From Fidelibacterota bacterium (GTDB lineage: Bacteria; Fidelibacterota; Marinisomatia; Marinisomatales; S15-B10), in assembly GCA_046861655.1 (NCBI GenBank), contig JBHIAI010000013.1:1-25264 (forward strand): 25,264 nucleotides of DNA, in the 5' to 3' direction. A program made the position numbers. This document shows positions 1 to 6,000 of this stretch, one piece after another. Within the stretch, counting starts at the first letter, position 1, and each line of letters starts with the position of its first letter.

Positions 1-3000
1 GCAGACTCCCTTGTTGTCGAATTCTATGTGAGTGGGACCCAATCCGGCGTCTATGTCCCGGGAGACATAGGTCTTATCGATGATTCTTACGCCGAATTCT
101 TCCCCTGTGAACCGTTTTTCGGCGATGGCCTGTCTCACCTTTGTGTAATCGACCATCCTGACGATAGTCGTGGCTTTTCCCCCCACCACAGCGTATCTCC
201 CTGTGGGCGATACATCCACACCGTGAGGGTTCAAAGGACACGGAACGGCATAGACTTCCACATCCCTCCATGAAATAACGGGCACGTCGGGCGCTTCCTT
301 GGTCGTAATGTACTTGCCCTCCTTCACCGCCTGACGGATGCTCTCGATATTCCAGAAGAAAATGTAGTCCTCCGGTCTTTGGAACATCCCCACGACATTC
401 GTGGATCTTTCTGTATTGTAAGCGGTGTTGACAAGCCACCCGTCCATCTCACCCCAGCCCACGCGAACCATGTCGAATTGCCAGGGACCCCACACCTGCC
501 AGGCCGTTTTCATGGTGCCATCCTCTGCGATGTCAACTCCCGTAAGGCAGGAAGCATACGGACCCTTTATTTCATCGATGTCAATGTTGAGGTATTCCCG
601 TATCTCCCTGGCGGGATACTGTTCCAGTTCGATGTTCGCTACGAGCAGGTCCGTGTTGGGACCCACGTGAGCGCCATGGATTCCCCCCTTCACGTTGGGT
701 AGCCAGATGATCTCAGCCGTGCGAAAGGTGGAAAGATCTATCCGGGCCATCCGGGCGTAGGTCTTGTCGTTGATGAAGAGCCATCGGCCGTCGTAGACGC
801 CGTCGGTCTTGCTGATGGCAGGATGGTGGGTATCGCCAGACTGTACCACCTCCCCGGTCCTGGGATTCGTTAACAGTTTCTTGACAAACGGGTTGGACAG
901 GGTCCACCCTGTGGCCGCCGTCGGTTCAAACACGGGGATTTCCTGCAATAGCTTCATGGACGGGATGCTGTAAACGTAAAGCCCACCCTGCTGTCCCCCA
1001 CTGGCGAAAACGTAGAATTCGTCGTTTTTCTGCCAGAACTGGTGGGGCATGGGATAGACTCTCTGGTATGGGTTCACTCCGGACTGTTTCTTCGGGCCAC
1101 AACCGACAAAGAACAGGCCACTCAGTACCAATAGTCCGGCTGTTTTTGTCCACTTCATTTCTGCCTCCTTGTGATTCAATCCATAGACTGCTTCTCAAAC
1201 AGCCTCAACAATCAATTTGCCCCGCATCTGGTAGTGGGCCAGACTGCAGAAAACCGTGCATTCGATGGCGAATTCTCCCGGAACGGTGGCTTTGAACGTA
1301 ATCTCCTTTACCACATTCGACCGCAGGCCCGTGACCCAAATGTCGTAGGGGCCCAGAACGTGGAATCCGTGTCCGCTGAACTCTTTCAATCCCGTGATTT
1401 TCGGGAGGTCGCCGTCGTCGCCCCCTTTCAGGACAAGCTTCACGACCTGATTCTGTTTCACACGAATCACGTTCGGTTTGTACTCGGATGTGACCACATC
1501 GATAGTGATGGTGACGTCCGGGTTTCCCAGCGGGTTGGCGGGCTGCCTTGACGGTTCGGAAATCCTCGCGTACGGTCCTGACCATCGTTTCGTCCCGGGG
1601 ACAAACTCTTCTGTTTGAGCCAGCCAGCCGTCCCGTGTACAGGAAATGATACCCAGAAGCAGAATCATCACCACGGTTCCTCGGGCCGCTTTCTCCATCA
1701 TGCTATACACCCCCTTCCTGAAGCAAATGCTTGATGTCTTTGACGATTACCTCCTGCGGGTCCACCAATCCGATATACCGGTACCGGACGTTTTCATTCC
1801 TGTCTATCAGGGTCACCATGTAGCTGTGATAGACAAGATCCACACTTCTTTTTTCCTTCACGAAGACCCTGTATGCGTCCCAAACCTCTTGCAGTTCGGA
1901 TTCGCTCCCCGTCAGGAAACGCCACTTCCCTCCAAATCCCCTGGTGTATGCCTTGATCCTCTCCGGAGTGTCCCTTCTCGGGTCGGTAGTGATGAATATC
2001 AACACCAGGTCTTTTTCCACAATATCATTGAACTCCCGCTGAATATGACGGAAGTGCTGAGTCAACAATCCGCAAACATCCGGACAGCTGGTATAGATGA
2101 ATCCGATCAAAACAAGCTTCCCGTCAAAATCGCTTAGCTGGGTGACACCGTTGTCCATATCGGTGAGTGTGAAGTCGAAGGCCTTCCGGGGTTCCAAAAG
2201 TTCAATCCTTCTCACCACCTGTTTCCCGGCGACCTCGGGGTTTTCCAGGGCAGGATGTTCAAAGGTGAAAGTCTCGTTCTCACCTTCCCGGAATTGCTGC
2301 AGGGCCCTGAAGGCCAGAATGAGGACGATAACGACACCGATGACGATCAGGAGATTGAGCCGCGGTTTCATCCCTCGCACCTATTCAACAACAACTTCCC
2401 CTTTCATCAGCATATGGTGGTCGCTGCACCACACGGAACAATAGAAAGGAAATCTCCCCTGTACGTCCGGAGTAAACGTTACCCTTTCGACCTCTCCCGC
2501 TTTTACTTCCCTCACCATGATGTCGAAGGCGGGAAGATAGAAGCCGTGCGATACCACGTCAACGTTCCTGATGACGATTCTCACTTTCTCACCCCTGGTC
2601 ACCTGGATGGTCTGGGGAAACCAATTGCCCTTGATGGGTTCGCGAGCGAGGAGTTCGACTGTGTCGGGACTCTCCCGGCTCGACTCATAAGCGAAAACTG
2701 CCCAGAGGGTTCCCAGGGAAACCAGGAGAACCAGAACGACGGCGGCAGTTTCCTGAGCACGCATAGGAACTAGGCTACAAACAGACGAACGAAGAAAATG
2801 TGGAGGCCCACGAGAAACGCGACCATGGGAATCCAACCCCTTTTTGCCTCCGCCACCGTGGCATACGTTTGCCTGGAAAACTTGAATCCGTAGTCAAGGG
2901 CAAACATCAATCCGACGATAACCAGGGACACCTGGAGGTAGGGCATTGCCCCGGTCAAAACGGGCGTCCACGGATACTTTGCCGTTCCAAACAGGTTCCA

Positions 3001-6000
3001 GCCCCACCCGAAAGGGTCGGATAGAATGTGGAGGAGATAGCTGCCATTGGGCAGGATAATACCGATGCTGAAGGCGCCCCATACCGCAAGGCCAACGGGA
3101 ACAAGACAGTACGAGAAGTTGACGAATGCATCTTTGATCTTGACCTCCTGGTTCTTGCTCAGTTTTCTGGACAGGTACACGAACAGGAGAAATACTGCGG
3201 GGATGAAAAGAAAATCAACGAATGTAGCTTCCGCAAGATAGCTGATATATCCACCCAATGTGGTGGCTCTGACCATATCCTTGAATTCGCCAGCGGGACT
3301 CTGGAACGCTCTGAAGAAGACCAGGAAAATCCCGAGCATGGTCAACGCCTTGAAGGCTTCATCCAACCCCCGCCTTCGAAATTTTCTGTCGGTAGGTTTC
3401 CGCTCAGCGAGGAAGTCGGCACCGAACGGCCTCAGGTTCAACGCCATATTATCGTAAGGACACGTCTTGAAACACTCCATGCACATTCCGCAGTACGTAT
3501 TGCGATTTATGTCGTAGGGCTGCTCCATCCAGGGGCAGCCGTACCCCTTTTCATTCCCCACGACACATGTTTTCGGCTTGTGCTCCTTGCAGATATCCGG
3601 ATCTTTCACGCGAACTTCACAGAGGGAAAAATTCGAATAAAGACCCTGAAACCCGCTTACGGGGCACAGAAAAAGGCAGAAGGTCCGCTTTCCGTAGATG
3701 GCGGCCACGATCGTTGCTGCTCCGATGATGAAGGACAAAAGAAGAAAGGTGGCGAAGGGTCTCACTGTGAAGAAACCGGAAAACCAGGTTGCGACGAAAA
3801 AAAGGATAACCAGGGGCCAGAGATTCCTTACTTCGTTGGGCCATCTCTTATTGAGTCCCCATGACTTCTGGCGTCCCACCTTGATCAGTTTTCCTCGCTG
3901 CAGCCAGTCGCCGAAAAGGGGAAATGGACAGACCATACACCAAAGGCGTCCGATGACAGGAACCATAACAATCATGAGGAGAACCCACCAGAGAATCCAG
4001 ACGATCATGATCCCGAAATTGTAGTTGCCTGCTGAGAGACCGCCCACGAAACCTGCCAGGAGAATGACGGCAAACACGAATAGATTGATGATGATCGGGA
4101 CAAAGGGAAACCACCTGCTCTTGAGTAAGGCGCGAACGGGTCTGTACCGGGTAAGCTCGAATCTTAAGTTCAGCGGTATGAAGCCAAACAACCTGTCGGA
4201 CCCAGCGGGATTGGGGTTCCCCCTTTTCCTGAACGACAGACCCAGGGAACCCAGACCGATGAATGCCACAAGGAAAACGCTGGCATAATACCTGGTGTTG
4301 GGCAGAACCTTCAAATATCCCACCATGTACGGGTGAAACTCCCCGCAAGTTTTTGAACAGCGGAACGTAAACTTCCCGGTCTTGTCAGCGTTGATAACGA
4401 CTTCCCTGGTTTCGCCGGGATTGACGAAGAATTCTGTCCCGTAGCCATCGAGGAAGAATCCGTGGGTGACGTCCTGGCTGATGAGTTTTATGATGAGCCT
4501 GTCGCCCTTACTGGCGGTGATGACGCTCGGGGAATAGGCAAACCGTTTTGCCCTGAGTTCGATGTGCTTGTCCCTGGCGGTGGAGGGTTCCGGGGCGCTC
4601 AGCCCCAGGACAATCACCACTGCCCACAGAATCCTTCTCACGGTTTCTCCCAACTTAGTTTCCGTAGGATCGCGATAGATTTCCTGGAAAAACTTTCCAT
4701 TCTTCCCCCATCCCAGAGGGCGAAGGCAACGTTGAGGCTTGTCCCCGGCTCGAACTCAAACTCCTCTCCCTGATTGCTATCAAGCCGTCTTTTGAACATA
4801 ACCGACCATTTGCCGTCCCTGTAGTCCCCTTTCCCTTCCACATTCTGTCTTGCCATGGGAGTTTGGGTTCCGGGACCGTGAGCGGTTAGTTCACGGACGG
4901 GGTTCGTCGACGTGTTGCCTTTCAGGTACCGCTCCACATTCCTGTCCGCCAGCCATTGCCAGACATTCGCCTTGTCCCCATACCCCATCATCTGGGCGGT
5001 GGCCGGTGCCTCGGCAAGGGCAAACATTATGGCACAGGCATCGGGATTCACAGGAGGTCCAAGATCCTCGGTTTTGTCGTTGAACTCCAGGAGGAAAGCC
5101 ACCTCTTTCCCGTTGTATGCCGCCCTGACCCAAATATCTTTTTCCTCGTTTCCGTAGGGTGACCTTGCCGATTGAGGATACAGGCGTATCTTCTCGGGTT
5201 CAATACCGTTCCAAAAGGGAGCATGGGGATCAAGATCGAATTCTTTGCCCACGTGAGCAACTGTGAGATTGTCCTTAGTTTCTATTTTCTCCCATTTCAG
5301 GTAAATCATGCGGTACAGGACAGCAAAGTAGACTCCCGCCAGGACAAGGGTGACCGCCAGGGTGTATGAAAGGGTCCTGTGGTGTCTTTTCATCTGTGAC
5401 CTGTCAGCCCCCGCTGTCTGAGTCAACATCCAATTCTCCAGTGTGCATGGAGGCGATGTAATCGAGCTTGGTCTGGATTTCATCACTCAACTCCGTTACC
5501 GGAGTATCCCGTAGCATCTGAATGATGATTTTTTTTGCCGAACTCCACAGGGGGTGCAGTGGACACGGATTCTCGTCCTGACACCCGGGAAATCCAACGA
5601 CACAGTAGTCGAGAAACGATTCACCATCCACGATCTTGGCCACCCGTAAAAGGGATATTTCCTCTGGAGGCTGGCTGAGGAGAAAGCCCCCCGCTTTCCC
5701 TTTCTGGGAGACGACTATGCCATGGCGGGCCAGTTGCTGAAGGATTTTCCCGAGGAAATGGTTTGGGATGTCCAGTGCCTCGGCAATATCTCTCTGCAAT
5801 ATGGGGGTGTCCGGCTGTTGAGCAGCCAGATAGATGACGGACTGAATCGCGTATTGACAGGCCTTGCTGAACAAAACAGACATAAGAAAAGTTTAAGTCA
5901 GACAATCAGACCCGATTGTCTGATTAATTATACAAAAAAATCCTGAACCATGGCAAGAAATTTTTTCTGTACCCTGTCAAGCGGAGAATTCTGTCATCAA

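Follow-up and report, generated by a model that had tools for sequence, protein, structure and literature searches.

A rare NosZ branch from Fidelibacterota with a full copper active-site sequence signature and a nos locus lacking the usual site-building genes

Introduction

To our knowledge, nitrous oxide reductase (NosZ) is the sole enzymatic sink for N2O. A review of October 2026 counts three clades of the enzyme (PMC13685413). In clade I, the loss of nosD, nosF or nosY results in an enzyme devoid of CuZ. According to PMC13477213 and PMC13685413, clade III clusters lack nosDFYL and carry ABC components proposed as substitutes; clade III offers an active precedent, and the absence of nosDFYL is not unique to the family described here. 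The CuA site is served by the TlpA/Sco/PCuAC route, and SenC2/PcuC have been reported to support NosZ, with Sco and PCuAC being tied to CuA, not to CuZ (PMC7558416).

Here, we analyse a nos locus from a Fidelibacterota genome (G000), located at one end of a 25,264-nucleotide stretch of DNA (the window; contig JBHIAI010000013.1 of assembly GCA_046861655.1). Judged by its sequence, the encoded enzyme is a rare NosZ branch with a full copper active-site signature, accompanied by none of the genes that usually build the site. No description of this lineage was found in the literature searched, and it may sit unlabelled in published trees, for example those of PMC12569097.

Gene organization of the locus

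Positions 1-5883 of the window contain seven genes, all in the same orientation on the minus strand. The N-terminal half of nosZ (1..1158, 386 codons) encodes a lipoprotein signal with the lipobox FVGC, the beta-propeller and five of the seven CuZ histidines, and includes the motifs DTHH, GIHG, NPHG and GPTH. The C-terminal half, located on another contig (C150:34-777), contributes two CuZ histidines, the catalytic Lys/Glu pair and the CuA domain; the motifs VGHL, PETH and SHG...CLWFCSELHLEM are found in the frame C150:1-777. On its 3' side lie a transglutaminase-thioredoxin gene (C150:814-2310), in which the Cys-His-Asp triad of the transglutaminase domain looks intact, and nosB (C150:2312-2860), recognized at 92 bits by an HMM built from clade II loci.

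The two nosZ halves are bridged by contigs of runs X2 and X3, which lead from the window end through two missing codons to position 34 of C150, bases 1-33 of that contig being a foreign tip without homology to nosZ. The contigs of both runs connect the halves without a frame break, so that the split is an artefact of the assembly; an insertion or pseudogene at the break, an idea raised by the non-homologous tip, is ruled out. The first-pass annotation had assigned the C-terminal half to C150:1-777; the contig was correct, and the gene part begins at position 34. An uninterrupted nosZ is found, as had been stated, in a congener (G001, 80 % identity) and in G033 (78 %). Elsewhere in the family, G046 (locus L029) has its copy broken into two ORFs, and the locus from Bacteroidota (L031) is fragmented.

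Next to nosZ lies a gene for a stand-alone CuA-type cupredoxin lipoprotein (1195..1701; SGHGF ... CxVFCxxxHxxM), which directly precedes nosZ in 18 of 20 loci, upstream DNA being absent from the remaining two. This protein is a candidate electron donor or copper donor. The predicted NosZ-cupredoxin complex is weakly supported, scoring 0.60 against 0.00 for the best control, with a contact agreement of at least 39 % and a partner pLDDT of at least 71. Of the solved pairs, 116 of 157 reached the mark for this score, as did 2 of 215 mismatched pairs, but values up to 0.60 comprise just 18 of the solved pairs and both mismatches. As the cupredoxin resembles the CuA domain of NosZ itself, the passing score may stem from the solved homodimer.

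Further upstream are genes encoding a membrane-anchored SCO1/SenC copper chaperone (1703..2371; CxxxC plus His; PF02630, 101 bits; 15 of 20 loci), a second, membrane-anchored CuA-type cupredoxin (2381..2764; SHG ... CSVWCSDHHMLM) and a CuA domain fused to a NapH/NosH-like membrane polyferredoxin (2770..4641; two CxxxCP motifs and a 4Fe-4S motif). The fusion protein, a candidate quinol dehydrogenase, matches the NosH-like protein encoded in a clade II cluster (23 % identity, 224 aa, E 3e-10). Contig C35 of G000 carries a paralogous CuA-polyferredoxin-CuA module, which indicates that the module is not nos-specific. Upstream of the fusion gene lie genes for an EbdC/DMSO-reductase-II gamma-type haem b protein, anchored in the membrane at its N terminus (4638..5393; PF09459, 103 bits) and matching PDB entries 7b04_C and 2ivf_C, and for an Rrf2-family regulator with three C-terminal cysteines (5404..5883; PF02082; TIGR00738, 100 bits against a cut-off of 73). 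Between the Rrf2 start and a sigma-70-like promoter (5927..5956, minus strand; 11 of 12 consensus bases, 18-nt spacer; one found against a shuffle mean of 0.3) lies a 26-bp palindrome with 10-bp arms and a 6-bp spacer (5898..5923). A similar sequence occupies the same place in G033 and G194, and the motif occurs once in G000 at up to one mismatch; the palindrome is probably the Rrf2 operator.

Across the other loci, NosB was recovered in 18 of 20, and 16 of 20 encode a thioredoxin or a CcdA-like protein. The previously proposed core of cupredoxin, nosZ and nosB with SCO is upheld, and the remaining genes named for this locus were confirmed by profiles and motifs.

Features of the NosZ protein

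All seven CuZ histidines and the CuA ligands (His, Cys, Cys, His, Met) are present, in line with the initial description, and align with those of M. nauticus N2OR (1qni), as do K449 and E487, which correspond to K397 and E435. Lys397 and Glu435 (1qni numbering) are named as catalytic in a review (PMC13685413), and the pair is invariant across a 90-row alignment. The AlphaFold model of the congener protein (pLDDT 92.6, pTM 0.91) shows a beta-propeller followed by a C-terminal cupredoxin domain, and all Foldseek matches listed for it are N2O reductases (E about 1e-52, TM 0.79-0.80). In its CuA motif, CxWxC, the family agrees with proteobacterial clade I. A twin-arginine (Tat) pattern was found in none of 75 family members; sequence and computation indicate Sec/lipoprotein export.

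Among 75 near-full-length members, 64 keep all seven CuZ histidines and all five CuA ligands; the CuA ligands are present in 74, the lone exception being truncated. CuZ histidines have been lost in 11 of the 75, so that the loss noted earlier is real and its count (about 6 of 30) is revised. The losers form two subclades, one of which lacks up to six CuZ histidines, yet keeps CuA and a full-length frame. This subclade, like the absence of known CuZ assembly genes from the carriers and loci searched, would suit a NosZ-derived protein that does not reduce N2O in vivo, with CuZ never being assembled (a CuA-only relay, as in nosDFY mutants) or with the histidine pocket holding a different copper site that acts on another substrate. 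Such a loss of function is unlikely, given the complete ligand set of most members, the invariant Lys/Glu pair, the retention of NosB, the Rrf2 gene that also heads Fidelibacterota clade II nos clusters, and the clade III enzymes, reported to be active without nosDFYL. An active N2O reductase is the reading that we favour.

Phylogenetic position

On the NCBIfam profiles, the protein scores 496 bits for clade II (TIGR04246, cut-off 625), 346 for clade I (TIGR04244, cut-off 625) and 149 for clade III (NF052460, cut-off 700), reproducing the earlier values. The family comprises 84 proteins from several phyla with an internal identity of 37-89 %; as before, 81 proteins were recovered at E<=1e-150, after which scores drop from 524 to 395 bits. 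TIGR04246 scores of 376-601 bits lie under the cut-off in all 18 members scored. This part of the first-pass annotation was reproducible, but low scores are rejected as proof of a new clade, as P0137, P0160, P0165, P0172, P0190 and P0201 also score under all three cut-offs and yet nest inside clade II. Identity to clades I, II and III is 25-39 % for the congener protein, about the 23-39 % given before, and 22-45 % family-wide (27-36 % to clade I, 22-35 % to clade III).

In the IQ-TREE analysis (mixture model, 17 clade II rows), the family forms a clade at 100/100 on a stem of 0.42, as compared to 0.18 for clade II. Clade II (100/99) and clade I (100/99) both exclude it, and clade III (100/100) stands apart, which, together with 149 of 700 bits, rules out clade III membership. 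Fragments under about 500 aa were left out of the trees, and the 38-row tree also omits degenerate family members and every long-branch divergent row other than P0137, P0132 and P0138. Nesting within either half of the sampled clade II was rejected (AU p=0.0007), in effect a single test with groups named after the tree was seen. The family is supported as separate from clades I, II and III as sampled, a case somewhat stronger than originally claimed.

The sister relationship to clade II, previously given at 88/99, is obtained at 86/74 under the mixture model and at 99 in FastTree (36 clade II rows), and a grouping of the family with clade I and P0132/P0138 is not rejected either (p=0.29). The joining with clade II, the Sec signal, NosB, the best score being on the clade II profile (496 bits) and the basal family member P0130, with 601 bits and up to 45 % identity to clade II proteins, could be understood if the active enzyme were the earliest branch of clade II, from which nosDFYL were secondarily lost, and hence no new clade. 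We regard this placement as improbable in view of the rejected nesting, the clade I grouping, which is not rejected, the CxWxC motif shared with proteobacterial clade I, and the family-clade II distance, which equals that between clades I and II (mean identity 36 % versus 37 %). A lineage of its own remains our preferred placement. Its designation as a 'fourth type' was an overstatement and is a naming choice only, since other full-length NosZ branches (P0132+P0138 and P0151) are likewise unplaced.

Absence of known assembly genes

NosD (TIGR04247) exceeded the cut-off in none of nine carrier genomes, and NosL (PF05573) gave no match in any of the nine; the one clade II control was positive for both. 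Local HMMs for NosD, NosL, NosF and NosY gave no match in 21 loci. NosY was not found in G000 and a NosF-like ATPase was not found in the 21 loci, a negative that applies at the locus level, NosF being inseparable from other ABC ATPases genome-wide. The genome-wide nosD test covered Fidelibacterota, Planctomycetota and Spirochaetota carriers, and four loci on metagenome contigs, the Chloroflexota-like ones among them, were covered at the locus level. The cluster also lacks nosR. The earlier observation of a cluster without nosD, nosF, nosY and nosL is supported.

Weak NosD matches in G000 were discarded, the one on C45 as the start of a generic beta-helix and those on C22 and C138 as lying in frames of 617 and 3239 aa. 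In the carriers searched for it, the lineage nosZ is the sole full-length nosZ (5 of 5). No nirK over the cut-off was found in five carriers; a NirK-like match on C106 (94 of 296 bits) looks like a small multicopper oxidase.

That NosDFY or NosL are encoded elsewhere in the carriers and were missed through incompleteness or divergence is very improbable: all carriers are MAGs, five of the nine have no completeness figure, Chloroflexota carriers were covered at the locus level and generic Pfam NosD (beta-helix) matches exceed the Pfam cut-off in 4 of 4 carriers searched, but the other four genomes are 92-94 % complete, these matches reach at most 56 bits in frames of 617-2052 aa, compared with a true NosD that scores 110 bits in one of 412 aa, and nosD is in none of the 21 loci, although the clade II clusters viewed have it a short distance downstream of nosZ.

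Proposed function and mechanism

Sequence and computation together establish a NosZ-type fold, a complete set of CuZ and CuA ligands, the Lys/Glu pair, Sec/lipoprotein export, the distinct clade and the lack of NosD and NosL in the tested carriers. The locus is predicted to be an N2O-respiration operon, and its product is probably an active N2O reductase of a deep lineage of its own, fed by a copper-protein electron chain; a Sco/thioredoxin kit would load CuA, and CuZ would be assembled without NosDFY or NosL.

In the proposed scheme, quinol would be oxidized by the NapH/NosH-like polyferredoxin, and electrons would reach the conserved cupredoxin by way of the fused CuA domain, the second CuA protein and/or the haem b protein. 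The cupredoxin would reduce CuA of one NosZ monomer, which would in turn supply CuZ of the other for the conversion of N2O to N2. This largely copper-protein wire would replace NosR of clade I, or NosGH and c-type cytochromes of clade II. The patchy occurrence of the electron-chain genes among loci (fusion in 8 of 20, EbdC-type gene in 6 of 20) counts against the scheme. The four CuA sites encoded in the operon may be loaded by the cytochrome oxidase kit. This would comprise SCO and a TlpA-like thioredoxin, which here is joined to a transglutaminase domain and has a CcdA-like counterpart in other members; some loci add PCuAC. The candidates for CuZ assembly without NosDFY/NosL are the universal partners cupredoxin, NosB and SCO. 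Rrf2 probably represses the operon via the palindrome.

More tentatively, and with slightly less than even expectation, we suggest that the family is a major clade in its own right, made up of active N2O reductases and as far from clade II as clade I is, which uses a CuA-protein chain and builds CuZ by a new route through cupredoxin, NosB and SCO, without NosDFY/NosL or an ABC transporter. Under this proposal, N2O would be consumed, uncounted so far, by vent, sediment and marine Chloroflexota (SAR202, Anaerolineae), Planctomycetota and Fidelibacterota, and some genomes might also encode a CuZ-less paralogue that serves as a CuA donor in a heterodimer.

Detection and significance

Scoring under all three curated cut-offs, the lineage drops out of surveys that require them; a survey of 199,602 genomes accepted genes as nosZ only if they exceeded the TIGRFAM thresholds (PMC13122619). 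In 15 genes and the two halves, primer nosZ-II-R has 4-6 mismatches, as compared to 0-1 in controls, and NosZ1F has 5-9. Standard profile cut-offs and the usual PCR primers would miss these genes. The biogeochemical weight of the family is likely modest, as carriers are rare: 4 of 401 Fidelibacterota genomes and 1 of 151 genomes of a Planctomycetota order, the latter being the centre genome itself. Expression of SAR202 nosZ has been reported (PMC5596340), and those genes may or may not belong to the family.

The source of the copper and sulfur of CuZ is the mechanistic question that this compact operon addresses. As it combines a canonical seven-histidine site with a locus in which no NosDFY, NosL or ABC component was found, NosDFY-independent CuZ assembly could be tested gene by gene.

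Comparison with known systems

The family resembles clade II (TIGR04246) in Sec export, a downstream NosB, the seven CuZ histidines, CuA and the top profile score. The Fidelibacterota clade II clusters (G034, G026-G028) read Rrf2-cytochrome c-nosZ-nosB-nosL-nosD-nosF-nosY, with Rrf2 common to both; Deinococcus ficus and Carboxydochorda subterranea provide further examples of clade II. In contrast to clade II, the family scores under the cut-off (376-601 of 625 bits), falls outside in trees, lacks nosD/F/Y/L and carries a CuA cupredoxin and SCO in place of cytochrome c and NosL.

With clade I (TIGR04244; M. nauticus, Stutzerimonas stutzeri and Paracoccus denitrificans), it shares the fold (TM about 0.8), all ligands and CxWxC, and the haloarchaeal branch of that clade likewise has nosZ flanked by a blue-copper gene upstream and a NosB-like gene downstream. 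It differs in the lack of a Tat motif and of nosR/D/F/Y/L, in its score (346 of 625 bits) and in its identity (27-36 %).

Clade III L-NosZ (Desulfitobacterium nosdiversum Sab5; NF052460; He et al. 2025) is, according to citing papers, also Sec-type with a cluster lacking nosDFYL. However, the family scores 149 of 700 bits, is 22-35 % identical and keeps NosB, and it has a His-His pair where the clade III rows of the alignment show His-Glu. ABC/MacB transporter components and b-type cytochromes are described as neighbours of clade III nosZ; no NosF-like ATPase was found in 21 family loci, and an EbdC-type haem b gene is found in 6 of 20.

Finally, the SCO, thioredoxin/CcdA-like and PCuAC genes beside CuA proteins recall TlpA-ScoI-PCuAC of Bradyrhizobium and SenC2/PcuC of Paracoccus (PMC7558416). 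Unlike that cytochrome oxidase kit, the family kit lies inside the nos operon, is its sole recognizable copper-handling set and has its thioredoxin fused to a transglutaminase domain.

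The nos operon and its interrupted gene

The source genome (G000; 2.06 Mb, 93 % complete) carries on the minus strand of the window a single operon (1–5883) that opens with an Rrf2 gene (5404–5883) and continues with genes for an EbdC-type haem b protein, a CuA–polyferredoxin fusion, a second CuA protein, SCO, a CuA cupredoxin and the N-terminal part of NosZ, whose first 386 codons run off the contig end. Upstream lie a 26-bp palindrome (5898–5923) and a sigma-70-like promoter (5927–5956); the palindrome is found again 5' of Rrf2 in two other carriers of the lineage (G033 and G194), and not clearly in a third (G046). 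The interval between this promoter and the nuo operon (5977–7345) holds a 293-aa ORF without family matches (5977–6858) and a PduO cobalamin adenosyltransferase domain (about 6827–7345). In the nuoA–N operon (7363–25264), which is complete, NuoG is short (541 aa), a transporter-like gene of 457 aa (8949–10322) separates nuoM from nuoN, and additional nuoM and nuoN copies lie 5' of nuoA (22314–25257).

The first-pass annotation described nosZ as split over two contigs. The halves do lie on the window and on contig C150, the start of which holds the remainder of nosZ, a transglutaminase–thioredoxin gene and a nosB-like gene, but the gene itself is whole. When C150:1–1200 was compared with four hydrothermal-vent metagenome runs from one study, contigs from two runs (X2 and X3) departed from C150 at base 34, its first 33 bases being non-homologous, and then entered the window-end sequence across a gap of two codons; as these contigs bridge the two ends, the population has a complete nosZ of about 635 aa. 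The gene was also found whole with the same neighbours, as previously claimed, in the congener G001 (80 %) and in G033 (78 %).

The NosZ protein and its family

On all sequence and modelled-fold tests, the family protein is N2O-reductase-like. The congener protein aligns with Marinobacter nauticus N2OR (1qni, 9f8x) at all seven CuZ histidines, the CuA ligands and Lys397/Glu435, the proton-donating pair according to PMC13685413, and the same ligand motifs are spread over both halves in the source genome, in agreement with the earlier claim of a preserved CuZ and CuA site. The AlphaFold model (90-row alignment) has a pLDDT of 92.6, and the Foldseek matches listed are N2O reductases throughout (TM about 0.8, 28–30 % identity). 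None of 75 members has a Tat motif; 11 of the 75 have a lipobox-like motif, against plain Sec signals or anchors in the remaining members shown.

A repeated homologue search, scoring the best 8000 word-sharing candidates, again returned 81 proteins at E≤1e-150 (49–100 % identity) followed by a gap, the next matches lying at 35–38 %; adding P0009, P0130 and P0321 brings the family to 84 proteins. Among the source names are Fidelibacterota, Chloroflexota (Anaerolineae, Dehalococcoidia, SAR202), Planctomycetota, Spirochaetota and Acidobacteriota; part of the members are from Tara. The lineage is rare, occurring in 4 of 401 genomes of the phylum, G000 counted, and in 1 of 151 genomes of the order of G043, namely G043.

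Respiratory N2O reduction is the probable role of this family. A protein acting on another substrate, or lacking CuZ, is an unlikely alternative when 64 of the 75 proteins of at least 600 aa keep all 12 ligands, although one to six CuZ histidines are lost in the other 11, which form two subclades; such loss had been noted before, and the count now stands at 11/75 instead of about 6/30. CuA is kept in all of the 75 except one truncated row. In four pairs (P0081/P0569, P0079/P0510, P0072/P0035 and P0019/P0015) a His-degenerate and an intact member have an equal longest contig (23477, 57840, 7802 and 15419 bp, respectively). The four degenerate members may be second copies on the intact member's contig and, since they keep CuA, a possible heterodimer is suggested. 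Two loci hold broken copies, through decay or assembly error: in a Spirochaetaceae MAG nosZ is broken into two ORFs (L029:5213–7174), and it is mostly absent from a fragmented Bacteroidota cluster (L031:10972–11564).

Phylogenetic position

The trees took as references named plasmid genes of clades I and II, clade II loci of Fidelibacterota, and clade III with the Desulfitobacterium nosdiversum cluster among its members. FastTree (113 rows) gave support of 100 for the family, 96 for clade II and 99 for the two together. IQ-TREE under LG+C20 (38 rows) recovered the family at 100/100 (stem 0.42), clade II at 100/99 (stem 0.18), clade I at 100/99 and clade III at 100/100, but family plus clade II at only 86/74. 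The proposed sister relationship to clade II has high support in FastTree and weaker support in IQ-TREE, and a grouping with clade I and P0132/P0138 was not rejected (AU test, p=0.29). Trees that nest the family with one or the other half of clade II were rejected (p=0.0007), in effect a single test, because the likelihood loss was identical, on groups picked after the tree was seen. Mean identity is 36 % between family and clade II, 32 % between family and clade I and 37 % between clades I and II. By these tree, AU and identity results the family ranks as a separate branch, and by the membership tests its NosZ belongs to none of the three clades; a basal clade II enzyme, favoured by the FastTree grouping, is slightly less probable than a non-N2O or CuZ-less protein. 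All 18 of the 84 members scored fell below the NCBIfam cut-offs for the three clades (376–601 with TIGR04246), reproducing the earlier result, which is weak proof alone and not diagnostic, because several divergent representatives that sit within clade II are below the cut-offs as well.

The designation 'fourth type' fits a separate branch and is to be read as a label rather than a count, because two further full-length branches below the three cut-offs are unplaced: P0132 with P0138, which have all ligands and a Sec-type look and stand beside clade I (97/96), and P0151, in which most CuZ histidines are gone. P0160, P0165, P0172, P0190 and P0201 form a CuZ-less subclade inside the clade II branch with enzymes of about 760–870 aa; CuA ligands are kept in four of the five, and P0160 has 12 cluster members.

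Accessory genes

Among 20 family loci, which are non-independent and many of which are ended by contig ends, the upstream cupredoxin and NosB each occur in 18, SCO in 15, thioredoxin in 11, transglutaminase in 9, CuA–polyferredoxin in 8, a CcdA-like membrane protein in 7, EbdC in 6, an ArsP-type permease and a dihaem cytochrome c in 4 each and PCuAC in 3. HMMs made from clade II matched no NosD, NosL, NosF or NosY in these family loci or on C150. Genome-wide, TIGR04247 (NosD) exceeded its cut-off in 0/9 carriers (a clade II control passes, 426 bits) and PF05573 (NosL) had matches in 0/9 (control positive). The reported absence of nosDFY and nosL from the cluster is thereby upheld, and it is very improbable that nosDFY was missed in these nine, of which four are 92–94 % complete (G041 being G194, by coinciding match coordinates) and five, none of the nine being Chloroflexota, are of unknown completeness. 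Generic Pfam NosD matches were rejected as NosD, as they sit in long beta-helix proteins.

Five carriers searched have haem-copper oxidases and no nirK above cut-off; a search of five carriers for a second full-length nosZ found none. Elsewhere in G000, L093 (C106:1–1982) carries the gene of a small multicopper oxidase with two domains and a weak likeness to NirK (94 of 296 bits) and, after it, a gene for a ZIP-like metal transporter; L103 (C35:1455–3916) is a second CuA–polyferredoxin–CuA module of three separate genes, away from nosZ and behind porin-like and cupredoxin-like genes. L104 (C112:1–3528) encodes a DMSO-reductase type II alpha subunit that has a Tat-like leader and is truncated at the contig end, with an EbdC-like gene beside it, and L097 (C168:1280–4702) is a 1140-aa frame in which a molybdopterin oxidoreductase and a cysteine desulfurase are fused, matched by an equal-length frame in G001 and a 1151-aa frame in G041.

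Novelty and comparison with known systems

Three NosZ clades are described, of which clade III lacks nosDFYL (PMC13477213; PMC13685413). Literature searches found no description of the present lineage, although it may stand unlabelled in subscription papers, tree figures or supplements. None was found in PMC13477213 or in the accessible parts of PMC13122619, PMC13685413, PMC12569097, PMC11148229, PMC5596340, PMC11409646, PMC7558416, PMC10359470, PMC10936187, PMC10547907 and bioRxiv 10.1101/2025.06.28.662143. The lineage falls below the TIGRFAM thresholds required for nosZ in PMC13122619, and common nosZ primers mismatch it. The nos operon is real and intact, and its NosZ is an undescribed deep branch with a distinct accessory set; the weight of this finding is limited by the clade III precedent and the rarity of the lineage, its N2O-reductase function being predicted from sequence and fold.

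For respiratory N2O reduction, electrons would pass from quinol through Fe–S centres to CuA, then through further CuA or haem b carriers to the cupredoxin and NosZ. The closest solved relatives of the cupredoxin are Thermus ba3 CuA domains. Complex prediction gave weak support for its pairing with NosZ, at 0.60 against 0.00 for the best control (contact agreement at least 39 %, partner pLDDT at least 71); of the benchmark pairs, 116 of the 157 solved and 2 of the 215 mismatched ones came up to this mark, with 18 solved pairs and both mismatches at or below 0.60, and the score is possibly due to likeness to the NosZ homodimer. Counting against respiratory N2O reduction are the patchiness of electron-chain genes among loci, the paralogous module on C35, the broken nosZ copies of L029 and L031, and the absence of CuZ from clade I nosDFY mutants (PMC13685413); CuZ would here be assembled without NosDFY and NosL.

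Clade II clusters of related Fidelibacterota have the usual nosZ-B-L-D-F-Y order, unlike the family clusters. SCO, thioredoxin/CcdA and PCuAC of the family loci match the known CuA-loading kit, as described in PMC7558416. The membrane part of the CuA–polyferredoxin fusion resembles NosH/NapH, and the fusion has CuA at the position where NosR carries FMN (PMC13685413); this combination suggests a path from quinol to NosZ.
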